Below are positions 9,371-34,173 of a stretch of DNA of 36,026 nucleotides, piece by piece. The stretch is from a virus. Taxonomy: Duplodnaviria; Caudoviricetes. The notes under the pieces were generated by a model. The model saw only the letters and a list, made by a program, of their open reading frames with translations, did no database searches and was not told the origin of the DNA. The DNA lies in IMG/VR virus record IMGVR_UViG_3300030392_000710, positions 1 through 36,026 of that record; one strand, given 5' to 3'. Within the stretch, counting starts at the first letter, position 1. Every line of letters begins with the position of its first letter. Both the position numbers and the translations under genes were made by a program.

Positions 9371-9432
9371 AACCTTTGCTTTCTACCAAGGCGCACAACC
9401 ATTTTACCAAGGCATTAAGGGAAAAACACACT

Positions 9433-9513
9433 TTTTTACCCCCCTTTTAGGCAGGTAAAGGAGGGGTAATTTTTACCCCCCTTTTAGGCAGGTAAAGGAG
9501 GGGTAATTTTTAC
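9433..9513. repeat. 37-bp tandem direct repeat (2.2 copies), each unit an imperfect hairpin
   Basis: TTTTTACCCCCCTTTTAGGCAGGTAAAGGAGGGGTAA at 9433 and 9470, with a partial third copy at 9507; TTACCCC-CCTTT pairs with AAAGG-A-GGGGTAA. Confidence 0.9.
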
Positions 9514-9699: not shown

Positions 9700-10983
9700 A
9701 TGAAGTTTTTAATGCTCCTGTACCAAATACAGGACTACGGCGGCATAATCAACCATGCGGAGCACCTTGCAAAAGGTATAAAAGAAAACGGACACGATAT
9801 AGACTTCTTACAGCTAGTACCAAAAACAGAAGTCCAAAACCGCCCCCGCAAACTAAAAGACGAACACCAATACCGTACCTATGGCACAGGGTATTTGCAT
9901 CATCAGGCACGGGGATGGGCTAATTTACCTAAAGTAGCTTACCTTGGTGAGGAGAATACGCAGCGGTTTAAGGAGCTGTGTTCTACTTACGATGCCGTGC
10001 TGTGGCATATCCCGGTACCCACGCTTAATAAGGACAATAAAAACATATCCGCGTGGCAAGACTTATACAACCACGGCACTAAGAACATAGCCATTATCCA
10101 CGACGGCAACCTGCAAAAGCTGTACCCACACCTGTTGCATGTTTCAAAGCACTTTTATGCCGCCGTATGCGTACACGAAGCCGCCTTTAACTCCGCAGCG
10201 TGTTTGGATATTCCCCGTAAAATGATTCTAAACCCCTTTTGCATAGACAACGTCACCACGTACCGTGACTTTGGCGAACGGTCCGGTTTTGCTGCCGTGC
10301 AGATCTTCAAGGCATGGAAACGAATGCACACCCTAGTAAAAGCAATTCCCCACATGCAAAACACCGAGCAAAAGCTAATCGGTGGCGCGGGTATTGAATA
10401 CCGCTACATGACCAGTGCAGACAAATGCAAGCCACAGTACTACAACGAAGCTGGCGAAAGAATATGGGATGCCGCCCTGCACAACGGTATGCTGTACCAA
10501 GGGGTGATACCTAACAGTAAGGTACACACCTTATTAGGGGGGGTAAAGCTGCAAATAGACCCTAGCTGGTCAGTTAAGTATTCGGGGTATGGGGCGCATT
10601 TTAACCGTACCACTGTAGAGGCAATAATTCAGGGTGCGGTGCCCGTAGCCACCGACTTAGGCATGGCTAACAGTAAGGTGTTTTTAAGAGGCAAAAACTA
10701 CATAGAACTCCCCCATACGGCTACACCAAAGGAATTTGCCGAAATCATAGACAACGCCCTGCTGGACAACACCCAATGGAGCCGCATAAGGGAATATAAC
10801 CTGCTCTTGCGTAAGCATTTTGAACAATGCTACGTGGCTAAACAATACGCTGACCTAGTAACCAGCCTAGACGGCACCATAACGGGCAAACCCGACACAA
10901 TTACACAGGAAGCCTGTAAAAAGAACCTTGGATTCTTCAACATTTTACCAGACACAGACCCCATACAAGCGGGGTTGTTTTAA
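9700..10983 (+). CDS. GT-B fold glycosyltransferase (GT4-like), candidate DNA-modifying enzyme
   Basis: N-terminal YGGIINHAEHL...GHDIDF, IIHDG, and C-terminal FNRTTVEAIIQGAVPVATD resembling the GT4 donor-binding signature; first gene of the replication/modification operon. Confidence 0.7.
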   Translation: MKFLMLLYQIQDYGGIINHAEHLAKGIKENGHDIDFLQLVPKTEVQNRPRKLKDEHQYRTYGTGYLHHQARGWANLPKVAYLGEENTQRFKELCSTYDAVLWHIPVPTLNKDNKNISAWQDLYNHGTKNIAIIHDGNLQKLYPHLLHVSKHFYAAVCVHEAAFNSAACLDIPRKMILNPFCIDNVTTYRDFGERSGFAAVQIFKAWKRMHTLVKAIPHMQNTEQKLIGGAGIEYRYMTSADKCKPQYYNEAGERIWDAALHNGMLYQGVIPNSKVHTLLGGVKLQIDPSWSVKYSGYGAHFNRTTVEAIIQGAVPVATDLGMANSKVFLRGKNYIELPHTATPKEFAEIIDNALLDNTQWSRIREYNLLLRKHFEQCYVAKQYADLVTSLDGTITGKPDTITQEACKKNLGFFNILPDTDPIQAGLF

Positions 10984-16311: not shown

Positions 16312-17232
16312 ATCTGGCATAAAGCAGCTTACGCTAACCCCGAAGCCGTAGAAAGGTTTTTTGGCTGGATTAATGAGCGACACGCCATTTACCAGCGCAG
16401 AGCAGCAGGACACCCTGCCCCTTGGACTAAAGACCCCATACTCCAGCAGTACAAGTTTACTAACCCCTTTAGAGAAAATGACCGTGTTACCGTATGGATG
16501 CGGAAAAACTGGACTGACCCCAACAAGGATAGACCTTGGGGGGAGATTATATTTAATTGCTGCTTGTTTAGGTCGGTGGGGACTTCTGCTTTTGCACAAG
16601 AACACGGATGGGTAACGAGTTGGGATCCTGACTACACTAAATCTATTATTGAGGAAAGACTGAGTAATAACCTCAGCACCTTTACGGGAGCCTATATTGT
16701 TACAAATCAAGGACTTAAACTTAAGAAGTCAGAGGTGGTGTCCGATTACTTTTTAACCCCTATATGGGAATCACGCAATAGCCTAGTACTGGTGGCTGAA
16801 ATAGCTAACACCCTGCAAGACGTACACAAAATTCTGGGTACTTTTACGGGTTGGGGCGGCGGAGGGTTTATGGCCTATGAGGTAGTAACAGACCTTAATT
16901 ACACCCCTGTGCTGCAACACGCACAGGACAGATTTTCTTGGGCTAACGCTGGCCCCGGAGCTAAACGAGGACTAAACCGCATACAAGACCGCCCCCTTAA
17001 CAAGAGCATTACTCCATCTCAGGCTAATAAAGAGATGCAGGAACTCTTGTTTGCTGCGGTGTACTATTGCAGAGGGCATTGCCCAATAAATCAAATAGAC
17101 ATGCGTACCATAGAGCACAGCTTATGCGAATGGGACAAATACGAGCGCGTACGACTAGGCCAAGGTAGGCCAAGGGCGCGTTTTGATGGGTTTAACAGGG
17201 ATAGTGCTACCGTTATTGGAGCCGTTGGGTGA
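16312..17232 (+). CDS. 5-hmdU DNA kinase-like protein (aGPT-Pplase1 / HMUDK helical family), apparent ATC start
   Basis: The frame is open upstream of track start 16498 and reads FFGWINERHAIYQRRAAGHPAPWTKDPILQQYKFTNPFRENDRVT, the family N-terminal signature. Also FMAYEVVTDL, GPGAKRGL, RTIEHSLCEWDKY. GGGAG RBS at 16301-16305, then in-frame ATC at 16312. Confidence 0.8.
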   Translation: MWHKAAYANPEAVERFFGWINERHAIYQRRAAGHPAPWTKDPILQQYKFTNPFRENDRVTVWMRKNWTDPNKDRPWGEIIFNCCLFRSVGTSAFAQEHGWVTSWDPDYTKSIIEERLSNNLSTFTGAYIVTNQGLKLKKSEVVSDYFLTPIWESRNSLVLVAEIANTLQDVHKILGTFTGWGGGGFMAYEVVTDLNYTPVLQHAQDRFSWANAGPGAKRGLNRIQDRPLNKSITPSQANKEMQELLFAAVYYCRGHCPINQIDMRTIEHSLCEWDKYERVRLGQGRPRARFDGFNRDSATVIGAVG

Positions 17233-18320
17233 GCCCCCCGTTAGTTTACCCGGATTTATCCCCCGTTAAGGGGGTTAGAACTTTTACTGTGAAAAACCCC
17301 AGCGAAGCCCTATACCTTTGTAAATGTGCCATAGAAAAAGAGGGCACCCCAGTGGAAACCCGCAATGGCTCCGCTTTAGAATTTGATACCCCCGTAGCCA
17401 TTACCTACAACAAACCACGCGAGAGAGTACTTTTTTACGCACAAAGAGATGCTAACCCTGTATTCCACTTAATGGAATCACTATGGATGTTACAGGGGCG
17501 CAACGATGTTGAATGGATCAGCCAATTTAATGGAAGAATAAACACCTACAGTGATGACGGGGCGCATTTCCATGGGGCTTATGGCTACAGGTGGAAAACG
17601 TGGTTCAAAAAAGACCAGTTAGAACACGCCACCCACCGCTTACTAACGTACAAAAACGACAGACGCACTGTACTTACCATGTGGGATCCGCACCACGATT
17701 TAGTAAAAACAAACGACGGTAAAGACTACCCCTGCAATACCCAGATTTTTCTGAAGAAAAGAGACAACTACCTAGACATGACCGTTATTAACCGTAGTAA
17801 CGATATGATCTGGGGAGCCTTGGGGGCTAACGCGGTACACATGTCGTTTTTACAGGAGTATATGGCTGCAAAAACAGGCACAAAGGTGGGAATTTACACC
17901 CAATTCAGCAATAATTTACACGTATACTTGGACACTTTGGAAAAGCTCAACACTCCGCAGCCCCTACGGGCTGACTACGATGCCTACGGCACACGTTCAA
18001 TAAAGCCCCAGCCCCTAGTGGACGATATAGAATGTTTTAACAAAGAACTAGAGCTCTTTTTTAAGGTAGACCCTATTACATGGGCTTACTATGACTGGAC
18101 ACCGCGTGGGAGCGGAAGTTCGGGCAGGTGGGTAACTCCCTTGTGGAAAAATTCCTTTTTCCCCGGAGTAGCGTTGCCAATGTTAAAGACATGGCAACTA
18201 TATAAGAAAAAAGACCTTGTGGCTGCAAGGGAAGAGACTTGTAAGATTACCTCCCCAGATTGGGCAATAGCATTAAGAGAATGGCTAGATAGAAGACGGA
18301 TTAGAACCCATGCCAAGTAA
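17229..18320 (+). CDS. Thymidylate-synthase-family protein, probable dUMP hydroxymethylase
   Basis: GAYGYRW, DRRTVL.MWDP, catalytic DYPCN, NRSND..WGA.GAN (Asn indicates a dUMP-type substrate), NNLHVY; coupled to the 5-hmdU kinase gene. Confidence 0.82.
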   Translation: MSPPLVYPDLSPVKGVRTFTVKNPSEALYLCKCAIEKEGTPVETRNGSALEFDTPVAITYNKPRERVLFYAQRDANPVFHLMESLWMLQGRNDVEWISQFNGRINTYSDDGAHFHGAYGYRWKTWFKKDQLEHATHRLLTYKNDRRTVLTMWDPHHDLVKTNDGKDYPCNTQIFLKKRDNYLDMTVINRSNDMIWGALGANAVHMSFLQEYMAAKTGTKVGIYTQFSNNLHVYLDTLEKLNTPQPLRADYDAYGTRSIKPQPLVDDIECFNKELELFFKVDPITWAYYDWTPRGSGSSGRWVTPLWKNSFFPGVALPMLKTWQLYKKKDLVAAREETCKITSPDWAIALREWLDRRRIRTHAK

Positions 18321-18776: not shown

Positions 18777-20628
18777 CCTATTCAAGACAGACTCCGAGTG
18801 GGTTTGTCCCCAAAGCTACCCAGACCTAAGTGCTGCCAAAGAAATCGCAATAGACCTAGAAACATGCGACCCCACCCTAACCACTCTTGGGTCTGGATGG
18901 CCCACGGGCAATGGACACATAATTGGAATTGCAGTAGCCGTGCAGGGGGAACAGTGGTACTTTCCCATACGACATGAAATCGGCCCTAACCTAGACGATA
19001 AAGCCACCCTGCGTTGGTTACAGGACGTAATCAGCGTAGACAGAGACTACATCTTCCACAACGCCATGTACGATGTAGGCTGGCTACTACAGGAGGGGTT
19101 AACCCTTAAGGGGCGTATAGTGGATACCATGGTGGCTGCGCCCCTACTGGACGAAAACCGCTGGAGCTATGCCCTAAACGCCCTTGGAAGAGACTACTTA
19201 AGCGAAAGAAAAAACGAACGAGAACTCCGCACCGCCGCCGCTGAATTTGGCGTAAATGCCAAGAGCGAAATGTACAAACTCCCCGCACACCACGTAGGAG
19301 CCTACGCCGAACAAGACGCTGCCCTTACCCTGCGACTATGGCAGCACTTTAAGTCCCTTATAGTACAGCAGGACGTACAAGACATTTTTGATTTAGAACT
19401 TAAGGTGTTGAATGTGGTACTGCCCATGAGACAAAAGGGCGTACGAGTGGATGTGGAAAAAGCTGCCCTGCTAAAAGACCAGTTACAGGAAAAAGAAAAG
19501 AACATCCTCAACACTATCACCACCCAATACGGTGTACCCGTGGACTTATGGGCTGCTGCCAGTATTGCTAAAGCCTTTGATGCCGCTGGACTAGAATACC
19601 CCTACACAGAAAAAACAAATGCTCCGTCTTTTACCAAGAACTTTTTATCCACACACAGTCACCCATTGCCGCAGATGGTGGTACAGGCAAGAGAATACAA
19701 TAAAGCAAGAGCCACTTTTATAGACACCATACTCCGCCACCAGCACAACGGGCGAATCCACGCCGAAGTCCACACCCTACGCAACGATGGCGGAGGCACC
19801 GTTACGGGTCGCTTTAGTTACAGTAATCCAAACTTACAGCAGATTCCAGCACGCCACGGGGAAATAGGCCCCATGATTCGTAGCCTGTTTTTACCCGAAG
19901 AAAACGAACAATGGGGAGCCTTTGACTACAGCAGCCAAGAACCCCGAATAGTGGTGCATTACGCCAAGTTGCTGGAATTCACCGGAGCTGACCAATTTGC
20001 ACAGCAGTACCACGAAAACCCCCACACGGACTTCCACCAAATGGCAGCAGACATTGTAGAAGTACCCCGTAAACAGGCTAAAGATATAAACCTCGGCTTA
20101 TTCTATGGTATGGGTACACGCAAGTTGGCGTATACCCTAGGGTTAGAACTAGAAGATGCCAAGGATTTATTCGCCACCTACCACGACAAAGTACCCTTTG
20201 TACGACAACTAGCCGACTACGCCACCAACAGAGCCACTAACCGTGGCGTTATAAGAACGCTGCTGGGGCGCAGGTGCCGTTTTGAAAAATGGGAACCCGC
20301 CAAGTACGGCACATGGAAGCCCCTGTCCTACGAGGAAGCCTACGCCGAACACGGCCCAAGTATTAAGCGATCTTTTACCTACAAAGCTCTCAACAAGCTC
20401 ATACAGGGTAGTGCAGCAGACCAAACAAAGGCTGCTATGGTAGCCCTGTACGAAGAGGGCATACTGCCCATGATACAGGTACACGATGAGTTGGACATTT
20501 CCGTACACAGCAGAAAACAAGCCCAACAGATAGTTGAAATAATGCAAAGCTGCGTCGACTTAGAAGTACCCTCCGTAGTGGATGCAGAACTGGGTCCTAA
20601 TTGGGGGGAAGCTAAAATTGCCCTCTAA
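18766..20628 (+). CDS. polA: DNA polymerase family A with 3'-5' exonuclease
   Basis: ExoI DLET, ExoII HNAMYD, ExoIII YAEQDA; TVTGRFS..NPNLQQIP; motif A DYSSQEPR, motif B KDINLGLFYG, motif C VHDE. Confidence 0.96.
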   Translation: MQVSLFKTDSEWVCPQSYPDLSAAKEIAIDLETCDPTLTTLGSGWPTGNGHIIGIAVAVQGEQWYFPIRHEIGPNLDDKATLRWLQDVISVDRDYIFHNAMYDVGWLLQEGLTLKGRIVDTMVAAPLLDENRWSYALNALGRDYLSERKNERELRTAAAEFGVNAKSEMYKLPAHHVGAYAEQDAALTLRLWQHFKSLIVQQDVQDIFDLELKVLNVVLPMRQKGVRVDVEKAALLKDQLQEKEKNILNTITTQYGVPVDLWAAASIAKAFDAAGLEYPYTEKTNAPSFTKNFLSTHSHPLPQMVVQAREYNKARATFIDTILRHQHNGRIHAEVHTLRNDGGGTVTGRFSYSNPNLQQIPARHGEIGPMIRSLFLPEENEQWGAFDYSSQEPRIVVHYAKLLEFTGADQFAQQYHENPHTDFHQMAADIVEVPRKQAKDINLGLFYGMGTRKLAYTLGLELEDAKDLFATYHDKVPFVRQLADYATNRATNRGVIRTLLGRRCRFEKWEPAKYGTWKPLSYEEAYAEHGPSIKRSFTYKALNKLIQGSAADQTKAAMVALYEEGILPMIQVHDELDISVHSRKQAQQIVEIMQSCVDLEVPSVVDAELGPNWGEAKIAL

Positions 20629-21127
20629 CAACTTAGTTGCCCTTTTAGAAAACCGCTTGTTAGGGGGACAAGTAACACGCTACCACACCCGACCAGAAGT
20701 AGGAGAAAATCAAAGCGTAGCCGAGCACACTTGGCGTGCTTTAGTAATACTCAATACCCTGTGGCCAGAAACCAGCAAACAGGCCATGTTGTATTTGCTC
20801 TACCACGACGTAACCGAGGCCGAGCTAGGCGATTTACCTGCCACCACCAAGTGGAAGTACCAATTTTTGGCTGAGGAGTACCGCAGGGCGGAGTCTGAGT
20901 GTACAAAAACACTTGAAATAACTTACGAAATCACAGAAAGAGAAAAAAGCATCTGCAAAATGGCAGATATGTTAGAGTTAGTGCTACATTGCTATGGGAA
21001 AATGCAAAAAGGAAACACGTTGGCCAGACCTATTTTTGAGAATGGGATACATTTTCTCAGGAACAACTTTTCAGACAACCCTAGCTTCCCCCCCGTTGAA
21101 AAAGTACTAACTGAGTTGGAAAAATAA
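20618..21127 (+). CDS. HD-domain phosphohydrolase (YfbR-like 5'-deoxynucleotidase)
   Basis: RYHT...SVAEH...YHD..EAELGD...ADMLE; probable TTG start at 20618 after GGGGGA. Confidence 0.8.
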   Translation: MPSNNLVALLENRLLGGQVTRYHTRPEVGENQSVAEHTWRALVILNTLWPETSKQAMLYLLYHDVTEAELGDLPATTKWKYQFLAEEYRRAESECTKTLEITYEITEREKSICKMADMLELVLHCYGKMQKGNTLARPIFENGIHFLRNNFSDNPSFPPVEKVLTELEK

Positions 21128-25510: not shown

Positions 25511-25524
25511 GTCAAGTGGCAACT

Positions 25525-25574
25525 CCTTAAAATGGGCACTATACTATAAGGGTACAAACAGCCACAGAAAGGGG
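25525..25574 (+). promoter_or_regulatory. Repeated promoter+RBS cassette, copy 1
   Basis: CCTTAAAATGGGCAC-TATACT-ATAAGGGTACAAACAGCCAC-AGAAAGGGG, ATG at 25581. Confidence 0.85.
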
Positions 25575-25580
25575 CACTAC

Positions 25581-26228
25581 ATGACAACACCATACATAAG
25601 TCCACTAAAGGACTTTGCCAAAGCTTACGAACCCGTAACAGCGGCATTAAACCCGTTTAACGAGTTCTACAGTGTGGAGTACTTTAACTACAATCCTAAC
25701 GTGGGTAGGATTTCCCGCAAATGGACCAATGACCCCGCAGGCGACTTGGAGTTAAACTACTGGCAGGATCGGGAAGCAACAGAAAAAAACGGCTACCTGC
25801 CTCTGCTTGCTATGCAAACAACCGAACTAGACGCTACGTGCTTTATAGAACTTGGCAAAGCCGACGCGGAAAAAATGCACCGCCGCACTCCCAACCTGTT
25901 TGCGTACATAGAACGCATAGCACACCGCCTGTGGGAAGCACAAGAGGTACGGGAAACCACATTCCTTAACTGGTACGACCGTAAGCCCGGTACCACACTT
26001 CCACGGGGTTTTATTAGCCTTAGAGAGGAGGTTTTACATTGGAGTTCCCAAAGCGTGGTGCTGGTGCTAGAGCTGGGGCGCGAGGATGACGCCGTACTAA
26101 GTAAAGTAATCAGCATAAACGGCAAAAAAGACTGGAGCTACGTGTGGGGTTTAATCCCCATGCCCACCATGGGGTCGGGAGAATGGCATTTTAGCAACGA
26201 GCCGACCTATAACCTCCAAACTTCTTAA
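25581..26228 (+). CDS. Hypothetical protein (215 aa)
   Basis: Bounded by cassette copies 1 and 2. Confidence 0.75.
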   Translation: MTTPYISPLKDFAKAYEPVTAALNPFNEFYSVEYFNYNPNVGRISRKWTNDPAGDLELNYWQDREATEKNGYLPLLAMQTTELDATCFIELGKADAEKMHRRTPNLFAYIERIAHRLWEAQEVRETTFLNWYDRKPGTTLPRGFISLREEVLHWSSQSVVLVLELGREDDAVLSKVISINGKKDWSYVWGLIPMPTMGSGEWHFSNEPTYNLQTS

Positions 26229-26232
26229 CTGG

Positions 26233-26290
26233 TTGTGGCTCCTTAAAATGGGCACTATACTATAAGGGTATAAGCAACCACAGAAAGGGG
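26233..26290 (+). promoter_or_regulatory. Repeated promoter+RBS cassette, copy 2
   Basis: TTGTGG-17 nt (CTCCTTAAAATGGGCAC)-TATACT-ATAAGGGTATAAGCAACCAC-AGAAAGGGG. Confidence 0.85.
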
Positions 26291-26297
26291 AAAGCAC

Positions 26298-26615
26298 ATG
26301 TTTCAGGAAAAATACGGAAAAATAATTAAAGAAGATTTGAGGCAAGAGGAAGGCGAAGCTCTTATAAAAGAGCTAGAAGCCGCTAACCCAAACAGATGGT
26401 ACGTGAACGTATACCATCGTGCCGTACTGCTGAGAAGAGGAAGGGCCAAAAATCCTAATGAACCCTCATACCATAATTGTTTTGCCGTGGAGGAAGTCAG
26501 CAGTGAGGCAATAAAAAATAGGCACGAAGAAGACTCCATGAATTGTACAGGTCACTATCGTAGACCTAACATATTAGCCACTGGCTATTTTATTGACGAA
26601 CGCGAAATACTATAA
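26298..26615 (+). CDS. Hypothetical protein (105 aa)
   Basis: Starts after cassette 2; its stop lies inside cassette 3. Confidence 0.75.
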   Translation: MFQEKYGKIIKEDLRQEEGEALIKELEAANPNRWYVNVYHRAVLLRRGRAKNPNEPSYHNCFAVEEVSSEAIKNRHEEDSMNCTGHYRRPNILATGYFIDEREIL

Positions 26616-26640
26616 GGGTACATACAACCAAAGAAAGGGG
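26607..26640 (+). promoter_or_regulatory. Repeated cassette, 5'-truncated copy 3
   Basis: ATACTATAAGGGTACATACAACCAAAGAAAGGGG, identical to the 3' part of the copy at 27877. Confidence 0.8.
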
Positions 26641-26646
26641 AAATAA

Positions 26647-26844
26647 ATGAAAACGGAACATGGTCCATTAACACTGTCTGTGGAAGGATACTTCAGCCCC
26701 AGAGAAATAAAAGCCATTCAAAGTGGTAAAGCAATGGTGTTCTTAGAGCTGGAAGATGACGCTATACAACGAGAATTTGATGTAGACAAGAACAGCCTTA
26801 AACAAGGTGAAAAACCATATGGCGTTAACAGCAGCGCAGACTAG
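26647..26844 (+). CDS. Hypothetical protein (65 aa)
   Basis: Starts after the cassette 3 RBS. Confidence 0.65.
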   Translation: MKTEHGPLTLSVEGYFSPREIKAIQSGKAMVFLELEDDAIQREFDVDKNSLKQGEKPYGVNSSAD

Positions 26845-27004
26845 GGGTGTTCTAGCACGCAGGGCTTTATTTGAGTCCTACAAGGAAACTCTAGCCAATA
26901 CCGGGTGTACTAAACCCTACGACATAATTATGGAGACTATCCATAATTTGGAATCAAAAGGCTACAGGATTACCAAAACTCCACAGAAAGGGGTAAAACC
27001 ATGA
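26807..27004 (+). CDS. Hypothetical protein (~61-65 aa)
   Basis: AAGGTG upstream of ATG ~26819; ends overlapping the next start. Confidence 0.55.
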   Translation: MKNHMALTAAQTRGVLARRALFESYKETLANTGCTKPYDIIMETIHNLESKGYRITKTPQKGVKP

Positions 27005-27348
27005 GTACAAGAGCCACTTACCAGTTTGTTCCCGCAGACCAAAGATTTAGACCCATCACCACGGTCTACGTTCACCATGACGGGTACCCAGAAGGTGCAG
27101 CAATGTATCTAGAGGGCGTGGAAACTGCAGAACAGTTTATTCGCAAAAACAACAAAGCAGAAATAACGGACAGTCACCAGACGCACTCCGACACAGAGTA
27201 CCGCTACACTATTTACGAGGGCAATGGTTTGCTGAACGTTGAAAAGAGAACCAATGTTAATTATTGGAGCGGAGGGAGCGTAATAGCGGAGTGGGACTCC
27301 ATTTTTGAGGGCCTCCTGACCCGGTTTACCGAAAACGGAGGCATCTAA
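27001..27348 (+). CDS. Phage hypothetical protein with MSTR...Y.HHDGYPEG motif (115 aa)
   Basis: Preceded by an RBS half-cassette CCACAGAAAGGGGTAAAACC (26981-27000). Confidence 0.75.
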   Translation: MSTRATYQFVPADQRFRPITTVYVHHDGYPEGAAMYLEGVETAEQFIRKNNKAEITDSHQTHSDTEYRYTIYEGNGLLNVEKRTNVNYWSGGSVIAEWDSIFEGLLTRFTENGGI

Positions 27349-27362
27349 AGTATGTGGCGGTT

Positions 27363-27412
27363 CCTTAAAATGGGCACTATACTATAAGGGTATAAGCAAC
27401 CACAGAAAGGGG
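27363..27412 (+). promoter_or_regulatory. Repeated promoter+RBS cassette, copy 4
   Basis: 50 nt identical to 26241-26290. Confidence 0.85.
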
Positions 27413-27419
27413 TAAAACC

Positions 27420-27866
27420 ATGAGTACAACCAAAGACGGCTGGTGCATCACGCGGCCATTTAGACAAGACCCAGAGGAGTTCCTTAACAAGCTCTCCTGC
27501 GAAAACGAAAAAGATAACGCAACACCTCTTAACTGGGTAGAGTCCATGGCGGTGGTGTCGGCTATTAGGTACGTTATACTCACCCACCTGCCTGACTGCC
27601 ACGGCATGACAGACTCTGACTTTAATAACTACGAGTGCTGCTTTTATGAGGGTGACTACGGTTTAGACACACCAGCAGACATAGACCGTGTTCTTACAAT
27701 ATTGCCAAAGTCTGTTATAGAGTGGAACGAAGAATTCACTCTGGGCACTAAGTTTAATATCCGTACGACACGGTATTTGGACTACACTTACATTGACGTA
27801 CACTGGGGGGAGGATCGCGGTGGACCGTCAGTGATTCCGCTGTACCTGCGCCTAGACACAAAGTAG
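27420..27866 (+). CDS. Hypothetical protein (148 aa)
   Basis: Bounded by cassettes. Confidence 0.75.
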   Translation: MSTTKDGWCITRPFRQDPEEFLNKLSCENEKDNATPLNWVESMAVVSAIRYVILTHLPDCHGMTDSDFNNYECCFYEGDYGLDTPADIDRVLTILPKSVIEWNEEFTLGTKFNIRTTRYLDYTYIDVHWGEDRGGPSVIPLYLRLDTK

Positions 27867-27876
27867 TATGGCGGTT

Positions 27877-27926
27877 CCTTAAAATGGGCACTATACTATA
27901 AGGGTACATACAACCAAAGAAAGGGG
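27877..27926 (+). promoter_or_regulatory. Repeated promoter+RBS cassette, copy 5
   Basis: CCTTAAAATGGGCACTATACTATAAGGGTACATACAACCAAAGAAAGGGG. Confidence 0.85.
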
Positions 27927-27932
27927 AAAAAT

Positions 27933-28343
27933 ATGTATTCACAACAACAGTATCTAGAGGAGTTAAACTACGCCAACGACAGGCGTAACTGCGCCCACGC
28001 ACCAGAAAAAATTACGGTATACCTCCCAGAGGAAGAAGCCGAGGTAGAACTGCCCACTAAGTACGTGGTCTGCGACGTGTGCCAAGGCGAAGGCTCCTAC
28101 GTTAACCCCGCAATTGACTGCGGCGGTATGTTCTTTACTGATGAGGAATACGAAGACTTCCAAGAGGAATACCACCGTGGCGACTACGACGTAACCTGCA
28201 ATCGCTGCCAAGGCAAACGTGTAATAAAGGAAGTGGACTGGGACGCCACCCCCCAAGAACTCCTGAAAGCGTACAAAGCCCAACAAAAAGAACTAGACGC
28301 CCTAGCACGAGAGGAGGCGTGGGAACGCAGCAGGGGGTGTTAA
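27933..28343 (+). CDS. Protein with DnaJ-type CxxCxGxG zinc-finger repeats (136 aa)
   Basis: CDVCQGEG...CNRCQGKR. Confidence 0.75.
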   Translation: MYSQQQYLEELNYANDRRNCAHAPEKITVYLPEEEAEVELPTKYVVCDVCQGEGSYVNPAIDCGGMFFTDEEYEDFQEEYHRGDYDVTCNRCQGKRVIKEVDWDATPQELLKAYKAQQKELDALAREEAWERSRGC

Positions 28344-28345
28344 GT

Positions 28346-28395
28346 CCTTAAAACAGACCTTATACTGTAAGGGCATAAGTAACCACAGAAAGGGT
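28346..28395 (+). promoter_or_regulatory. Repeated promoter+RBS cassette, copy 6 (variant)
   Basis: CCTTAAAACAGACCT-TATACT-GTAAGGGCATAAGTAACCAC-AGAAAGGGT. Confidence 0.8.
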
Positions 28396-28401
28396 AAACA
28401 C

Positions 28402-28731
28402 ATGACCAACAACCCAAAAGGAGACTGCTTTGCCGCAGCGGGACGCGCCATACTCAACGGGGACTCCACAACGGAAATGCGGCTGGTGCATGCGGTCGTT
28501 ACGCAACCACTGCAACCGTCTTGTTCGTACCCGCACGGGTTCAACCTAGTGGGGGAAACCGTAATAGATAACAGCAACGGCGGTTGCCTGACAATGGCCA
28601 AACAGGAGTATTTTAATACCTTTAAGATACGCCAAAAGGAAGGCCTCTACGCTGAATACACCGCAGGCGAGGCGCTGTTGAAACTGGTGCAGAGTGGGAA
28701 TTTCGGCCCGTGGGATCTCGGGGGGTATTAA
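28402..28731 (+). CDS. Hypothetical protein with possible Cys-His-Asp triad (109 aa)
   Basis: GDCF...YPHGF...VIDNSNG...FGPW. Confidence 0.7.
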   Translation: MTNNPKGDCFAAAGRAILNGDSTTEMRLVHAVVTQPLQPSCSYPHGFNLVGETVIDNSNGGCLTMAKQEYFNTFKIRQKEGLYAEYTAGEALLKLVQSGNFGPWDLGGY

Positions 28732-28733
28732 AT

Positions 28734-28783
28734 CCTTAAAACAGACCCTATACTATAAGGGTAAGTACAACCAAAGAAAGGGT
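28734..28783 (+). promoter_or_regulatory. Repeated promoter+RBS cassette, copy 7 (variant)
   Basis: CCTTAAAACAGACCC-TATACT-ATAAGGGTAAGTACAACCAA-AGAAAGGGT. Confidence 0.8.
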
Positions 28784-28789
28784 AAACAA

Positions 28790-29215
28790 ATGGAAAAACC
28801 AAACCAAGACGGCTGGTACACCTACCAGACCAAGGACCACACACAGGGGTTCTTTGGCCAACTGGCACTGGAAATAGAAACTCTAGAAAAGCACGAACAA
28901 CAACACTACATGCTTCTAAAATCACTGGTAGAAACGCTACTGGTCACGCGCCCCACGTACGACTACTACTTTAGTGAGTGCTACGACACCCCCACCCCCG
29001 CAGACATGCCACGGCAGTCAGGCAGTGAGTGGCAAACCCTGTACGACAACAGCCCCCTGTATGGGAAACCCTACTGGCCTTATGCCTACGACACCATATA
29101 CGTAGCGGACAGCTACGGCGACTATGTGTACTTTGCCCTCTGCCGTAACGGGTGCAGTCACAGTAGCGCACTTGCTGAATACATAAGGGTGAACACAGTG
29201 GCGGCTCCTACGTAA
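28790..29215 (+). CDS. Tyr-rich hypothetical protein (141 aa)
   Basis: ATG 28790 follows the cassette RBS (track start 28694 reads through the cassette). Confidence 0.75.
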   Translation: MEKPNQDGWYTYQTKDHTQGFFGQLALEIETLEKHEQQHYMLLKSLVETLLVTRPTYDYYFSECYDTPTPADMPRQSGSEWQTLYDNSPLYGKPYWPYAYDTIYVADSYGDYVYFALCRNGCSHSSALAEYIRVNTVAAPT

Positions 29216-29256
29216 GGAGCCTATACTGTAAGGGTACAAGCAACCACAGAAAGGGT
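29198..29256 (+). promoter_or_regulatory. Repeated promoter+RBS cassette, copy 8 (variant with hairpin spacer)
   Basis: GTGGC-GGCTCCTACGTAAGGAGCC-TATACT-GTAAGGGTACAAGCAACCAC-AGAAAGGGT. Confidence 0.8.
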
Positions 29257-29262
29257 AAACAC

Positions 29263-29607
29263 ATGTTAAAAATGGAAATAGATGGTATAAACGAACCCGT
29301 AGCCGAATGGCTACCACTTAGTCCGGGCGTGGACTACTGCACCACCAAACACGCCTTTGTAATTGAACTAGACAAAACCCCCCAAGACCCAGAGTGGGGA
29401 CCGCAGCACCTTACGGTGGAGGACTTCAAACCCTGCCACCCCCACACCGAATGGCTACCCGTAGAAGTCTACGAAGCCCGCACCGCAGACCACAACTACG
29501 TGCTCCTGCACCAGCTACAACACGAACCCCCCACACCAGAGTGGCCCATTGGCAACTCAACCCTTACGCTGGAATGCCTGCTTAGGTTCAAACGGGTGCC
29601 CGCATGA
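29263..29607 (+). CDS. Hypothetical protein (114 aa)
   Basis: Starts after cassette 8. Confidence 0.75.
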   Translation: MLKMEIDGINEPVAEWLPLSPGVDYCTTKHAFVIELDKTPQDPEWGPQHLTVEDFKPCHPHTEWLPVEVYEARTADHNYVLLHQLQHEPPTPEWPIGNSTLTLECLLRFKRVPA

Positions 29608-29801
29608 GGTGGCAACAACGGCAACGAAACCCAAGCCCATGGCAACGGAATTACAACTACACTCAAGGGGTTATTCGCGCGGGGTTACGGCCAACTCGGC
29701 ACAGGGCTGCCATAACCGCGTGCCGGAAAGCCCAAAACCCGGAATTCAAAATACTATGGCTGACCATAGCCGCCAAACTAAGACCACAGGACCAAGACTA
29801 A
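29604..29801 (+). CDS. Basic hypothetical protein with A.NPEF..W motif (65 aa)
   Basis: ATGA overlap; CRKAQNPEFKILW resembles MKRARNPEFRAMW in 23216..23413. Confidence 0.6.
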   Translation: MRWQQRQRNPSPWQRNYNYTQGVIRAGLRPTRHRAAITACRKAQNPEFKILWLTIAAKLRPQDQD

Positions 29802-29813
29802 AAGGAGCTCAAA

Positions 29814-30050
29814 ATGGGCTATATTATTACTCACAATGTAATTGACGAACGCAAAGCAAAAACAAGAACACCTCAGCAGGAAAAAACGCACCCACACTAC
29901 TTTGAACTACGGGACGATGACAACGAACTGTATTTCAGGGGCTACTCCACGTGTGACAGCTCCTTCGCTCCACTTGACTATGTAGGGGAATCTTACGGGT
30001 GTACTACAATAAGGTACAGGGGAAACACCGGGGAAATGAAAACACTGTAA
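29814..30050 (+). CDS. Phage hypothetical protein (78 aa)
   Basis: AAGGAG RBS; FELRDDDNELYFRG...FAPLD...GCTTIRY. Confidence 0.75.
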   Translation: MGYIITHNVIDERKAKTRTPQQEKTHPHYFELRDDDNELYFRGYSTCDSSFAPLDYVGESYGCTTIRYRGNTGEMKTL

Positions 30051-30266
30051 GTAGTCCTTAAACAAGGAACTCTGCTATATAGATGGTATATTGGACAAAA
30101 CGAGGTGTAAATAATTCTTAAGTCCAGGCTATACAATATCAAAGTATATAGGTTAGAGTCCTTATACAAGGACAGGTATTTCCGCTGATTTAAGTCCAAT
30201 TAAGGTGTTTTAATTTGAAGCCGTTTCTGGTACTATCACATCTATAGAACAAAGTGGCTCCTTACC

Positions 30267-30815
30267 ATGCCAAAGTCCAAACAAACTCATAAACCCAAGC
30301 TCGCAGTAGTGGCAAATCCGCGTACAGAAAAACACATAACTCCCAAACAAGAGGAGTTCTGCCGTATATACAGCAGCGAGGATGTGACCCAGACCGAAGC
30401 CGCCGTCCGTGCGGGGTACAGTCCTGCAAGTGCTCATGCTATAGCTAGTCAGTTACTTAACGGGCGGAATTTCCCCCATGTGGTTGCCAGAGTACGGGAA
30501 ATCAAATCCGAGTTGGCTAGAAAATACGAAGTCACCTTTGAAAATCATGTGCAAAAACTGGCGGAACTACGCGACACCGCCATACAGAACAACAATTACT
30601 CTGCAGCAGTCTCAGCTGAAAAGTACCGTGGTCAGGCTGCGGGGCTGTACATAGACCGCAAGGAAATACTACACGGAAAGATAGACCAGATGTCCCGAGA
30701 CGAGGTGCTGCGGGAAATAAAGAGACTCCAAGAGGACTTCCCGGGTCTAGCAGCGGTTGGCGCGGGAAATGTAATAGACGTTACGGACGCAGAACTGGTG
30801 GAGGAGTCCCCGTAA
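30267..30815 (+). CDS. terS: Terminase small subunit
   Basis: ITPKQEEFCRIY...TQTEAAVRAGYSPASAHAIASQLL...PHVVARVRE, the HTH pattern of Terminase_2-type TerS; SAAVSAEKYRGQAAGLY. Confidence 0.85.
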   Translation: MPKSKQTHKPKLAVVANPRTEKHITPKQEEFCRIYSSEDVTQTEAAVRAGYSPASAHAIASQLLNGRNFPHVVARVREIKSELARKYEVTFENHVQKLAELRDTAIQNNNYSAAVSAEKYRGQAAGLYIDRKEILHGKIDQMSRDEVLREIKRLQEDFPGLAAVGAGNVIDVTDAELVEESP

Positions 30816-30831
30816 GGGAACACGTTTAGAG

Positions 30832-31284
30832 TTGCCTAGCAAAGCGGAGAGTCGGCTGTGGTACCACCTGCGTGATGCCACTAAGAATCTGTACAGTGAA
30901 TACCCCATACTGTGGACACGCATAGAGTCATGGGCAGCTCCGGGTGTACCAGATTTACACGGTCTAATTAAGGGGCGGTCGTTTTGGGTGGAACTCAAGA
31001 TTCACAAATTAAAGTCGCTTAAGTCAGTAAAGTTCCGTCCACATCAAATATCTTGGCAGACTAAGTATTCTATGCACGGGGGACACGTTTGGAACTTGGT
31101 TAGTCATCCTCCGTCACGATCACTCAATTTATTTTCAGGAGAACAGGTCATGGGCCTAGCTGGATTGGACGCTGACGCTGCCCCGTTGACCCCGGTCTGG
31201 TCGTCGGGGATTCCTTTTAATTGGTCAGGACTCCTCAATCATCTTCAGTCTTCATCAATGGATTTACCTCCAGAAGAGACTTGA
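30832..31284 (+). CDS. PD-(D/E)xK nuclease (VRR-NUC / Holliday-junction resolvase-like)
   Basis: ESRLW...RIES...PGVPDL...FWVELK...RPHQISW. Confidence 0.8.
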   Translation: MPSKAESRLWYHLRDATKNLYSEYPILWTRIESWAAPGVPDLHGLIKGRSFWVELKIHKLKSLKSVKFRPHQISWQTKYSMHGGHVWNLVSHPPSRSLNLFSGEQVMGLAGLDADAAPLTPVWSSGIPFNWSGLLNHLQSSSMDLPPEET

Positions 31285-31432
31285 CTTGAACCGTGAACCA
31301 TAGCCCCTGTACCATGGTCAATAGTCTTCTGTCCTCTTCACTAATCATCAATCGTCCTCTTTCTTCAATTCTCGTCCATTCAAGTCTGGTCTACAGGCCA
31401 CGGGAGGATTGATAATAAAACCTTATTAAAGC

Positions 31433-31461
31433 TTGCAATGAACATGTTCCTAAAGTACACT
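31433..31461 (+). promoter_or_regulatory. Sigma70-like promoter
   Basis: TTGCAA-17 nt-TACACT with AT-rich upstream sequence. Confidence 0.65.
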
Positions 31462-31516
31462 ATACTTAGTGGGGTGCAAGGGGCAGTCCACAGTTTCTCA
31501 AAGAAAGGAGAATCAC

Positions 31517-31972
31517 GTGCAAAAAGCACTAACTAAGCAGATCACAGCCAAGGCCGTGGTCAATAAAGCCAAGGCAGTAGACTTTACTGTGCCACAGGGC
31601 GAAGAAGTCACCGCTGCTGCGGTATGGGAATGGGTACAAGCTGAGGCCGACGGGCAGCTAAACAATGTGGTAGTCACCCCATTGGATAATTGCCGCCTAA
31701 AGGACCAGAAGCGTACCCCATTCGGGTATTCTGGCAAGCCGGACGGCGTGCGGGCACGGTACCATGACTTCCACCTGTTTGGGCTGCGTCCCCCGCATGG
31801 TAAAAAGGGCGACCGCCGCCTAGGGGAAATCCTAGCAGCCATGCGTAAAATAGACGGCCACAGCAAGCAGACTATGCTCTGTACCGTGGCACTATTGAAC
31901 GGTGGTTACAGCCCGTCCGCAGGGACTTGGCTGCAAGGTCCTTGGATTAAGCTCAGCGTAGTTAAAGCGTAG
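31517..31972 (+). CDS. Hypothetical protein (151 aa), paralog of 33212..33841
   Basis: GTG 31517 after AAGAAAGGAG; shares NNV, PFGYSGKPDGVR, LFG and ALLNGGYSP with the downstream gene. Confidence 0.8.
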   Translation: MQKALTKQITAKAVVNKAKAVDFTVPQGEEVTAAAVWEWVQAEADGQLNNVVVTPLDNCRLKDQKRTPFGYSGKPDGVRARYHDFHLFGLRPPHGKKGDRRLGEILAAMRKIDGHSKQTMLCTVALLNGGYSPSAGTWLQGPWIKLSVVKA

Positions 31973-31987
31973 CTGAATCCGGGCAAG

Positions 31988-32019
31988 GGTCGGGGGGCTG
32001 TGGCTTCCCGGCCTTTTTT
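31988..32019 (+). terminator. Rho-independent terminator
   Basis: GGTCGGGGGGC-TGTG-GCTTCCCGGCC followed by TTTTTT. Confidence 0.7.
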
Positions 32020-32126
32020 ATACGTGAGATTTAGTATAAGAAATGATAAGACTTGACTAGACTCCCCCCTACCCATGGGCGTATCACTATACCTTTCATT
32101 ATAGATCCATATAGATCTGGGGTTAG

Positions 32127-32184
32127 TTGTGGCTCATGCCACCAGACTTTATACTGTAAGGGTAAGTACAACCACAGAAAGGGG
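32127..32184 (+). promoter_or_regulatory. Repeated promoter+RBS cassette, copy 9
   Basis: TTGTGG-17 nt-TATACT-GTAAGGGTAAGTACAACCAC-AGAAAGGGG. Confidence 0.8.
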
Positions 32185-32190
32185 TAATAA

Positions 32191-32655
32191 ATGAGCATCA
32201 GCTTTGATGGTATTAAAGACTTGACGGGGCCACTCAGCCCTGTTGCCTACACTCCCGACGAGTTAGAACATCAGGAGTACATGTTCTGGCGGCGTTACCG
32301 TATGCTGACTAAGCGCAAAAACAAACTCATTACCCGGTTGCAGTGCGGTCGTGTGCGGGTGGTAGAACTAGAAAAACGGTGCGCCAGTACTACACGGCCA
32401 TGGCATCCCCGCACACCAAACGTGTGTGACTGGGCTATGCAAGAGGGGGAAATTGTGCCAAGGCTTAACGCCACGGAAAAGGCAATAGAACGGCTGGTTG
32501 CTAAAATGGCAGCCATCGTGGCGGGGTATTCAGCCAGTATATATGCTGCTAACACTCCGGCGGCGGACCAGTTCATGGGTGCGGTGTACAAGGCAACGGA
32601 ATGGCAAACACAACAGTACTCCTGCCCCTGCTGGCGTTGCCAGTCCCGTGGGTAG
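32191..32655 (+). CDS. Hypothetical protein (154 aa)
   Basis: Follows cassette 9; C-terminal CPCWRC. Confidence 0.7.
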   Translation: MSISFDGIKDLTGPLSPVAYTPDELEHQEYMFWRRYRMLTKRKNKLITRLQCGRVRVVELEKRCASTTRPWHPRTPNVCDWAMQEGEIVPRLNATEKAIERLVAKMAAIVAGYSASIYAANTPAADQFMGAVYKATEWQTQQYSCPCWRCQSRG

Positions 32656-32659
32656 ACTT

Positions 32660-32696
32660 TACACTGTAAGGGTGGCAATTAAACCGCAGAAAGGGT
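32660..32696 (+). promoter_or_regulatory. Degenerate cassette, copy 10
   Basis: TACACT-GTAAGGGTGGCAATTAAACCGC-AGAAAGGGT. Confidence 0.65.
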
Positions 32697-32706
32697 AGAA
32701 AATACT

Positions 32707-32996: not shown

Positions 32997-33096
32997 AAGA
33001 GGATATATATACCCGATGAGGAGACTCTCGGCGCGGGTCTGCGTGCATAGGTGTGCTCTGCTCATATCGTATCAAGTCTATTCCTGGCTGGGGCTG

Positions 33097-33133
33097 GTTG
33101 GGCACACATTACTAGTTGGGCACACACTTACTA
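33097..33133 (+). repeat. Tandem 18/19-nt direct repeat just upstream of the -35 box
   Basis: GTTGGGCACACATTACTA followed by GTTGGGCACACACTTACTA. Confidence 0.8.
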
Positions 33134-33139
33134 TAGGGG

Positions 33140-33167
33140 TTGCAATACGTGTGCATAGGCCTATAAT
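33140..33167 (+). promoter_or_regulatory. Near-consensus sigma70 promoter
   Basis: TTGCAA-16 nt-TATAAT. Confidence 0.7.
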
Positions 33168-33211
33168 GTAACTGTGCACTAACGCACAGTTACCATATAA
33201 AGGGTAAACAA

Positions 33212-33841
33212 ATGGCAAAAAGTAATACAGTAAGTAAACCAGCAACCGCCACTGCTACAGTGGCCAAGGTTGCAACCGTACCCATACCTTGCGTGCAAAC
33301 GCAAAGCAATGGGGTTGTGGTACCAGTAACGTTTGCAAACCTAAATGGTTTTATTGCAAGTGTTGGTGGTGCTAATAACGTTACTTGGGTGTTAACCGCT
33401 GCGGGTAAGCTTGCAGTACAAAATGCACCACAACCGGGTATAAGTGTGTTGCCTTACGGGTATGGTGGCAAGCCAAACCATGTACGGCCTACACAAATTA
33501 ACTGGTTGTTGTATGGCATGCACCCACAGTATGCGCAGGGTGTTACCACCATACGCAACCAAAAGCTTAGCAAACCCCAGCAACAAGCTGCTGTGTTAAG
33601 TAGCAGGCAATGCCGGCATGGTGGCGCGTATAAGGTAACACCGGCTACCCAGCCAGTGTTTAATTTGCACGCTTACTACCAGCTTATTGCGCTGTGTACA
33701 GGTGTACCAAAAAGGCCATGCGTACTAATGGCCTTGTTAAATGGTGGTGGTAGCCCATGCAACCATACCTTTGGTGCAAAAACTTTGCCAAGTTTTGGCC
33801 AAGCCATTATTGCGCTACAAGTTGCCAAGCCTGCTAGCTAA
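33212..33841 (+). CDS. Hypothetical protein with no Asp or Glu (209 aa)
   Basis: Own promoter, AAAGGGT RBS and terminator; motifs PYGYGGKPNHVR and ALLNGGGSP shared with 31517..31972. Confidence 0.85.
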   Translation: MAKSNTVSKPATATATVAKVATVPIPCVQTQSNGVVVPVTFANLNGFIASVGGANNVTWVLTAAGKLAVQNAPQPGISVLPYGYGGKPNHVRPTQINWLLYGMHPQYAQGVTTIRNQKLSKPQQQAAVLSSRQCRHGGAYKVTPATQPVFNLHAYYQLIALCTGVPKRPCVLMALLNGGGSPCNHTFGAKTLPSFGQAIIALQVAKPAS

Positions 33842-33857
33842 ACACTAGCAGCAAACC

Positions 33858-33894
33858 GGGCGCGCTAGGGTTAGGTACCTAGCGCGCCCTTTTT
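33858..33894 (+). terminator. Rho-independent terminator
   Basis: Perfect 12-bp stem GGGCGCGCTAGG/CCTAGCGCGCCC, 8-nt loop, TTTTT. Confidence 0.88.
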
Positions 33895-34173
33895 GGTTTT
33901 TGGTGTTGGCTATAAAATAGCCAGCACCCCGCTTGCGGAGGAAGGTGTTATATGCATCGCATGTAACACTGTTTTGACTAGAAATCCTGGTGTATTTTTT
34001 ATAAAGTTCCTTACATGAACCAATGAACATTCCCCCTTGTTGTGGGTTGCTGGGCTGTGTGCTTTGTGTAATTATTGTGTTTTACACCCTAGTGCCCTTA
34101 GCCGATTGCTGGAGTTCAAACGGGGATAGTGTGTTCAGAGTGTGGTCCCCGCAGATGAACCACCCTGAACTTT

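Follow-up and report, generated by a model that had tools for sequence, protein, structure and literature searches.

An uncultured marine phage of ~48% GC carries an 856-nt island devoid of GA and TC dinucleotides. Our analysis confirms this island, finds it conserved among relatives and costly to the protein, and ties it to a cluster of genes predicted to glycosylate thymine. The window, i.e., the whole stretch of DNA analysed here, is a 36-kb fragment (36,026 nt) that makes up the entire record IMGVR_UViG_3300030392_000710. Positions refer to this window, and features lie on its plus strand unless stated otherwise.

A transcription unit free of GA and TC

An earlier note on this DNA had claimed that 856 nt (33083..33938, no strand) contain no GA and no TC, and our recount returned 0 GA and 0 TC. 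Its expectation of ~100 sites was too high, the genome's own rate giving 77; at that rate, the chance of an empty island is log10 P ~ -35, and that of its 226 non-coding nt taken alone log10 P ~ -9. Elsewhere in the window, GA/TC-free runs reach no more than 85 nt, and every other dinucleotide class tops out at or below 145 nt. Moreover, 200 Markov simulations gave a longest GA/TC-free run of 83 nt on average and 126 at most, and redrawing the codons synonymously 20,000 times for the unchanged protein left a mean of 38.6 sites and a minimum of 18. Base composition or amino-acid bias alone is therefore excluded. Outside the island, the genome retains 3,235 GA/TC sites.

An assembly artefact or a synthetic insert is excluded by the islands of relatives (the island is conserved in loci L001-L008) and by independent contigs from the runs of two other studies, which span most of it (X5, 33086-34125; X6, 33131-33663). 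Among the differences listed, none of the 15 substitutions inside the island creates a GA or TC, as against 33% of all possible substitutions; 124 further differences are spread over the whole stretch. No published account of such a dinucleotide-free island was found in the literature covered, which lies largely outside subscription journals.

The island is a complete unit in which a promoter-like site, an ORF and a terminator-like hairpin are all free of GA and TC. The sigma70-like promoter TTGCAA-16-TATAAT (33140..33167), identified by its match to the consensus only, has no TC or GA in or around it, and similar sites occur in L001, L003 and L006. The -35 box lies 57 nt from the left edge of the island, close to the ~55 nt given before. 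Its RBS ATAAAGGGT (33197..33205) is a GA-free form of AGAAAGGG. The AAAGGG type as such, which the earlier note had singled out, is not special to the island, since AGAAAGGG serves 11 other small genes; what is island-specific is the change of AGA to ATA. The gene (33212..33841), the purged downstream copy of a pair, encodes a basic protein of 209 aa with a weak winged-helix resemblance and without Asp and Glu, in accord with the two amino acids said to be missing. The codon usage described for it also holds (Ser AGT 6 and AGC 5, Phe TTT 5, Ile ATA 3 and ATT 5, stop TAA). An intrinsic-terminator-like hairpin with a T tail follows (33858..33903, stem 33858-33889), and a C-run and then GA (33927..33941) form the right border, found in most relatives 50-100 nt 3' of the gene.

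At window positions 33927-34020, the C-run and GA border recurs at equivalent positions in most of L001-L092, and a distant clade shows a TAGGTTCATTG box ~170-280 nt past the gene, ahead of terL. Contig ends are enriched in the 250 nt that follow the gene on its right, where 20 kb of exposure gave 12 ends, two of which cut the gene itself, vs ~1.3 per 10 kb elsewhere; this border region is a candidate genome terminus. Two complete records (G051 and G058) break between the twin copies. Between the island and the expected terL lies an unannotated ORF of 610 aa (34174-36006), with a counterpart of 597 aa in L006 and none in L001.

The island gene is the purged twin of a paralogue of normal composition 1.7 kb upstream (31517..31972), which encodes 151 aa from the GTG after its RBS, with 13 Asp and Glu and 33 GA/TC. 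A TC-dense patch (31201..31400; 32 TC in 200 nt) lies 5' of this ordinary twin, and similar patches occur in relatives, many of which have them before both copies (L016, L034, L063, L073, L089 and L091). Boxes resembling TCATCAATC recur within the patches in either orientation, and the patches of the distant clade hold ~45-50 GA/TC per 250 nt; this could be the DNA with the densest marks, or a signal for packaging or insulation.

The gene family comprises 146 proteins by profile search and 46 representatives by full-library search, none with a name. Two tandem copies are present in 77 of the 89 sequences with a match, and the 12 single copies are mostly at contig ends. With respect to the terminase small subunit gene terS (30267..30815), the twin pair of relatives, L001 and L006 among them, sits between terS and terL. 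The downstream copy has fewer GA/TC than its upstream twin in 55/55 unique pairs: 29 downstream copies are strict (at most 25 GA/TC per kb), 7 intermediate and 19 relaxed. The nearest relatives have zero-site islands of 850, 868 and 875 nt, and the four zero-site islands differ pairwise at 76-325 aligned positions while still holding 0 GA/TC. On a tree of the copies, a quick version with long branches at the window clade, upstream and downstream copies mostly fall apart (3 changes), and strict and relaxed states are scattered (7-8 changes). A longer avoided motif in relaxed copies was ruled out, as TC is found there with each of the four bases on its 5' side and with each on its 3' side. In a further record (G059, L242:2688-3468), at least 781 nt without GA or TC contain a divergent ORF that has family-like motifs but went unscored by the profile; it adjoins a weakly matching ordinary copy.

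The island-family protein is basic with a lysine-rich tail, and downstream copies have a mean net charge of +9.9, upstream copies one of +7.8. The family alignment shows no conserved acidic residue, which speaks against a metal-dependent nuclease. Predicted models reach a pLDDT of 77 and 88, the latter for a compact member. The VIA search returned many winged-helix/wHTH and RRE rows in the C-terminal half (Z 3.0-4.0, residues ~50-141), the best Z of 4.8 being below the tool's stated background, and Foldseek searches of PDB and BFVD with the family models gave no match. Sequence searches of Pfam, PHROGs, PDB sequences, GenBank phages (tblastn) and GTDB genomes gave no match to the family either, an absence that does not amount to a new fold. 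DNA binding by the island protein is plausible. We rejected an identity with Pam3_Gp34 (PF23977): despite an Atlas feature match of 0.95, the hhalign probability against the window's own Pam3_Gp34 gene is 0.1%, and there is no Pfam match.

Predicted thymine-modification genes and the company they keep

The terS of the window phage is closest to those of the Pelagibacter phages HTVC023P and HTVC027P and of DSL-LC04. The window encodes PolA, a thymidylate synthase (TS)-family enzyme, a PF18723 protein, an HD nucleotidase and a 427-aa GT-B-like protein. The TS-family enzyme (17229..18320) has a dUMP hydroxymethylase signature, with Asp at ThyA L143 and Asn at N177 (KDYPC vs ALPPC and GANAVH vs PFNIAS in the alignment), and the motif is the same in 8/8 relatives (7 DYPC, 1 DHPC). 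A kept N177 together with a non-Leu residue at L143 is reported to denote a dUMP substrate and a non-methyl product (PMC13326640), and by this rule the window enzyme would have both. Its best GenBank matches are M6/YuA-like enzymes, at 42% identity. The adjoining gene encodes the PF18723 protein (HMUDK_hel, 16498..17232), a family that we take, given the gene context in PMC9599517, to be aGPT-PPlase clade 1. A domain match identifies the HD-family 5'-deoxynucleotidase (20582..21127).

The predicted GT-B glycosyltransferase (9700..10983) is the candidate writer of the mark. The assignment comes from an Atlas match of the 427-aa protein (0.98-0.99 to Glycos_transf_1 and AGT, i.e., DNA alpha-glucosyltransferase, clusters) and from the Pfam matches of its orthologues, which lie between PF18723 and TS in relatives and match PF00534 at E 9e-9; the window protein alone reaches only E 0.011. 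GT-B enzymes are reported to lie often beside thymidylate synthases (10.1101/2023.12.21.572611). Sugar transfer to hmU of DNA in a TC context is a candidate activity of this enzyme, and from the predicted gene set we infer that the phage DNA may carry hmdU that is then glycosylated. In the divergent gap between the SNF2 helicase and glycosyltransferase genes, we also noticed a 37-nt direct repeat (~9410-9510, seen on the minus strand), a possible replication origin.

By Pfam, neither an amino acid:DNA transferase above cut-off nor a recognised P-loop hmdU kinase is present among 49 window proteins and 63 proteins of the relative G001; a sub-threshold ADDT match falls on the PF18723 protein, and G001 has a small AAA_33 protein. 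The G001 scan covered ORFs of at least 75 aa outside the terL-portal part in L001, and among the same 63 proteins Pfam gave no guanine-modification gene. G001 also encodes a CHASE2 adenylate/guanylate cyclase and a pyrimidine-dimer glycosylase (L010:9749-11278 and L011:12096-12587).

The island and the gene family appear tied to this predicted thymine-glycosylation cluster, as judged from co-occurrence in both directions. A forward check took in 28 records behind 29 loci, taken from longer contigs. In the records at least 90% complete, a TS-like gene and PF18723 are each present in 11/11 and the 427-aa glycosyltransferase is clear in 8/11; the other three have, between PF18723 and TS, a 323-364-aa protein that aligns with the glycosyltransferase end to end (308 columns, 11% probability). 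In three complete relatives, this second GT-like protein replaces the 427-aa one (L093:1547-2518, L094:1911-2933, L095:2584-3678 and L095:1814-2554), one of them with an added FkbM methyltransferase, which suggests different sugars with the same TC avoidance. For the reverse test, 49 loci were chosen by the glycosyltransferase alone, and 18 previously unexamined records were searched. The family matched in 9 of these 18, with both copies in 3/3 complete ones, and in six of the records the copy lies in a clean run of 539-832 nt. No family match was found in G053, a glycosyltransferase-bearing record that is 89% complete.

The control consisted of 80 loci chosen by the terS of HTVC023P, which represent one AT-rich clade and of which 44 span terS to terL. 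These loci contain no family gene and no modification-gene match, their longest GA/TC-free run is 108 nt, and PF18723 is present in 0/20 records of this clade, 4 of them complete. The whole genome of phage M6 has no island either (longest GA/TC-free run 51, TG/CA-free 79). Conversely, G009, G016 and G018, which are complete and have an intact TS signature and the glycosyltransferase, keep 34-43 GA/TC sites in the downstream copy.

Strand asymmetry, promoters and what the island may avoid

The earlier note had ascribed the island, without naming a cause, to selection that acts on the DNA itself, in every frame and on either strand. This view is backed by the clean nucleotides outside the transcript, by synonymous sites and by the divergence of the zero-site islands. 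Upstream of the transcript, 92, 90, 92 and 90 nt are clean in four islands, so the constraint acts on DNA. Furthermore, the 8 fully purged copies have no GA and no TC at synonymous sites, with coding-strand TC at 0/449 opportunities. The two strands are, however, unequally constrained. At the synonymous sites of 18 relaxed copies, TC on the coding strand has returned to background (ratios 1.08 and 0.98), whereas coding-strand GA is low (0.26 and 0.16, vs 0.65 and 0.63 in the upstream twins). Coding-strand GA is template-strand TC. GA is below TC in 27/41 copies, above it in 5 and tied in 9, a difference for which the nominal P of 1e-4 overstates the case, the copies being related. The other window genes under-use synonymous GA/TC as well (0.29-0.76). 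The structural genes of HTVC023P show no under-use (1.00-1.23) although some of its gene groups are low (0.52-0.66), and ratios for gene groups of HTVC023P, DSL-LC04 and M6 range from 0.52 to 1.44.

We lean modestly towards reading the island as a starter copy, kept free of the mark, of a factor that likely binds DNA, in a phage whose glycosylated T at TC would impede host transcription. The phage would replicate with 5-hydroxymethyl-dU and glycosylate T before C, giving a residue in virion DNA that we presume to be base J-like. The mark may be costliest on the template strand, because relaxed copies purge template-strand TC, and this asymmetry suggests that it would affect not only promoter use but also elongation, which it would slow or stall. 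Once the DNA has entered, the mark-free island would be transcribed first, from its plain sigma70-type promoter. The least certain step is that its basic, weakly winged-helix-like product might bind marked DNA and open other, TC-bearing promoters to the host polymerase; the ordinary twin, which keeps its acidic residues, would take over later.

Several reports bear on this starter-copy reading. Phage T hypermodification is reported in TC and TG contexts (PMC6449724, PMC13458397), and one phage T-dioxygenase is described as preferring NTC (PMC13229309). Bulky major-groove groups are reported to inhibit bacterial RNA polymerase in vitro (PMC11550810); the same source attributes the inhibition to promoters, in which case a purge of the coding region would not be required, a point against the starter copy. 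Also counting against it, T4 is reported to be transcribed with fully glucosylated C (PMC6755090), and M6 lacks an island despite proven TG/TC hypermodification. The relaxed state of G009, G016 and G018, and the scatter of strict and relaxed states on the tree, weigh in the same direction. So do the upstream twins of the window and L006, which have no TC at -16, the lack of a family match in G053, the weakness of the fold match and the restriction of the controls to one AT-rich clade.

The window has nine copies of a promoter-RBS cassette that serve small genes (25516..32702), each with TC exactly 16 nt before the -10 box; these are the promoters that such a factor might open. In three genomes, where cassettes were picked only by their -10 box and tail, TC stands 16 nt 5' of the -10 box in 22/22 cassette promoters and GA at -5 in 16/22, with no further site from -27 to -1 and with variable bases in between. 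They also keep a degenerate -35 at 17-nt spacing (T at -23 in 21/21, G at -21 in 19/21) and G at -5 in 21/21. As the cassettes are related copies with other invariant bases, the fixed TC may be inherited among them and is a lead, not proof. The idea that they lack a -35 and are MotA-like was dropped, since the degenerate -35 is present and the TC..GA pair lies in the spacer. A perfect TCC-N7-GGA dyad was likewise rejected as a general feature: with a -10 box after it, it occurs once in the window, 5 times in G001 and 7 times in L006, and the distant clade lacks it except for one row overlapping an RBS. In G001, the upstream twin has a cassette-type promoter with the dyad; in the window and L006, its promoter is sigma70-like with a GA..TC palindrome in the spacer. 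In the distant clade (L016-L092), GA recurs near -36, -26, -14 and -5 relative to the -10 box, about one helical turn apart, in 70 roughly aligned, partly homologous promoter-like sites.

A two-state epigenetic switch seems to us rather unlikely, but it deserves consideration: glycosylated TC would silence virion DNA, and the exempt starter gene would encode a reader that activates promoters with the mark at a fixed spacer position, making the modification a regulatory code beyond armour.

That the island escapes a host nuclease cutting modified DNA, of the type IV restriction or END-like kind, and enters first or survives to encode an inhibitor, is in our opinion unlikely. END nucleases are reported to target diverse hypermodified phages, some of which encode inhibitors (PMC12191111), and patchy strictness among kin with the same enzymes would fit a host-dependent defence. 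The location of the pair between terS and terL and the contig ends to the right of the gene also agree with this explanation, but such breaks may stem from strain variation or hairpins. A double-strand nuclease should, moreover, hit both strands alike, while relaxed copies regain coding-strand TC only, which favours a transcription cost over a strand-blind nuclease. Finally, the fixed TC of the other promoters would be left unexplained.

We give little credence to the protein being a silencer or packaging-type coat that represses marked TC DNA, with its own starter copy mark-free to escape self-repression. Its basic nature, lysine-rich tail and weak winged-helix matches would suit such a role, as would the TC-dense patches before both copies and the TC..GA dyad in promoter spacers. 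Repressors commonly bind promoter spacers. Autoregulation, however, normally needs no purge of a whole coding region and terminator, and there would be no reason for silencing unrelated promoters of small early genes.

There is a similarly small chance that the avoided agent is a host or competitor enzyme damaging unmodified TC or GA (of the deaminase or DNA ADP-ribosyltransferase type), or a phage mark on another base. Strict lineages purge strand-symmetrically, as expected from such an agent, but the family and the island go with the T-modification cluster, the dUMP-specific position of the TS is Asn, no guanine-modification gene was found by Pfam in the 63 G001 proteins mentioned above, and the 3,235 sites of the remaining genome are kept.

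The strand asymmetry also fits mRNA-level selection on GA, and a GA-free transcript that resists a CmdT-like toxin, so that the gene is still translated in an intoxicated cell, is the least probable of these explanations: CmdT is reported to ADP-ribosylate the adenine of GA in single-stranded mRNA (10.1101/2024.02.24.581662) and relaxed copies hold GA but not TC low, yet it accounts neither for zero coding-strand TC (0/449, 8 copies) and 90-92 clean untranscribed nt nor for the link to modification genes, and would be at most a second pressure.

Known systems and significance

The gene set resembles that reported for the thymidine hypermodifiers M6, ViI, phiW-14 and SH-Ab 15599 (PMC6449724, PMC8989533, PMC13458397), with a dUMP-hydroxymethylase-type TS, PF18723 and an HD nucleotidase near PolA. 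The window phage differs from the M6/ViI type in having a GT-B enzyme and, among the window and G001 proteins scanned, no transferase above the Pfam cut-off and no recognised kinase, and from M6, with its reported TG/TC contexts, in having a dinucleotide-free island. Uncultivated pelagiphages of the HTVC023P type (clades V, VIII and IX) are also reported to carry TS and aG/PT-PPlase1 in the neighbourhood of PolA, in some cases together with a nucleotidase and a glucosyltransferase (PMC9599517). A purged gene or a twin pair, both present in the window phage, is absent from the available part of that description.

The role proposed here, an early factor letting host sigma70 polymerase use a second promoter class on sugar-modified DNA, is reminiscent of sigma appropriation by MotA/AsiA in T4 (PMC6755090). 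According to the accessible part of that account, every C of T4 is modified with no mark-free gene, unlike the window phage with its GA/TC-free gene, and the MotA box replaces the -35, whereas the cassettes keep a degenerate -35 with the TC..GA pair in the spacer. Searches by sequence and fold gave no match of the family to MotA. Restriction-site avoidance reported in the T5-like BF23 (PMC10644984) and in Autographiviridae (PMC12455610) is also a local motif purge, possibly near a genome end. In the window phage, the motif is instead a dinucleotide, its purge removes two amino acids, and it goes with the modification genes of the phage itself rather than with a host restriction site.

The candidate glycosylated-thymine reader and the candidate TC-specific DNA glycosyltransferase would be useful tools if confirmed. 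To our knowledge, protection against nucleases is the role chiefly assigned to phage hypermodification, and what it costs the gene expression of the phage itself is largely untested. A gene that gives up Asp and Glu to avoid one dinucleotide shows the cost of modification directly in its sequence, and such a purge allows the modified context to be predicted for an uncultured phage from sequence, without any chemistry. The purged and ordinary twins constitute a natural matched pair for the effect of a bulky base on transcription, strand by strand.
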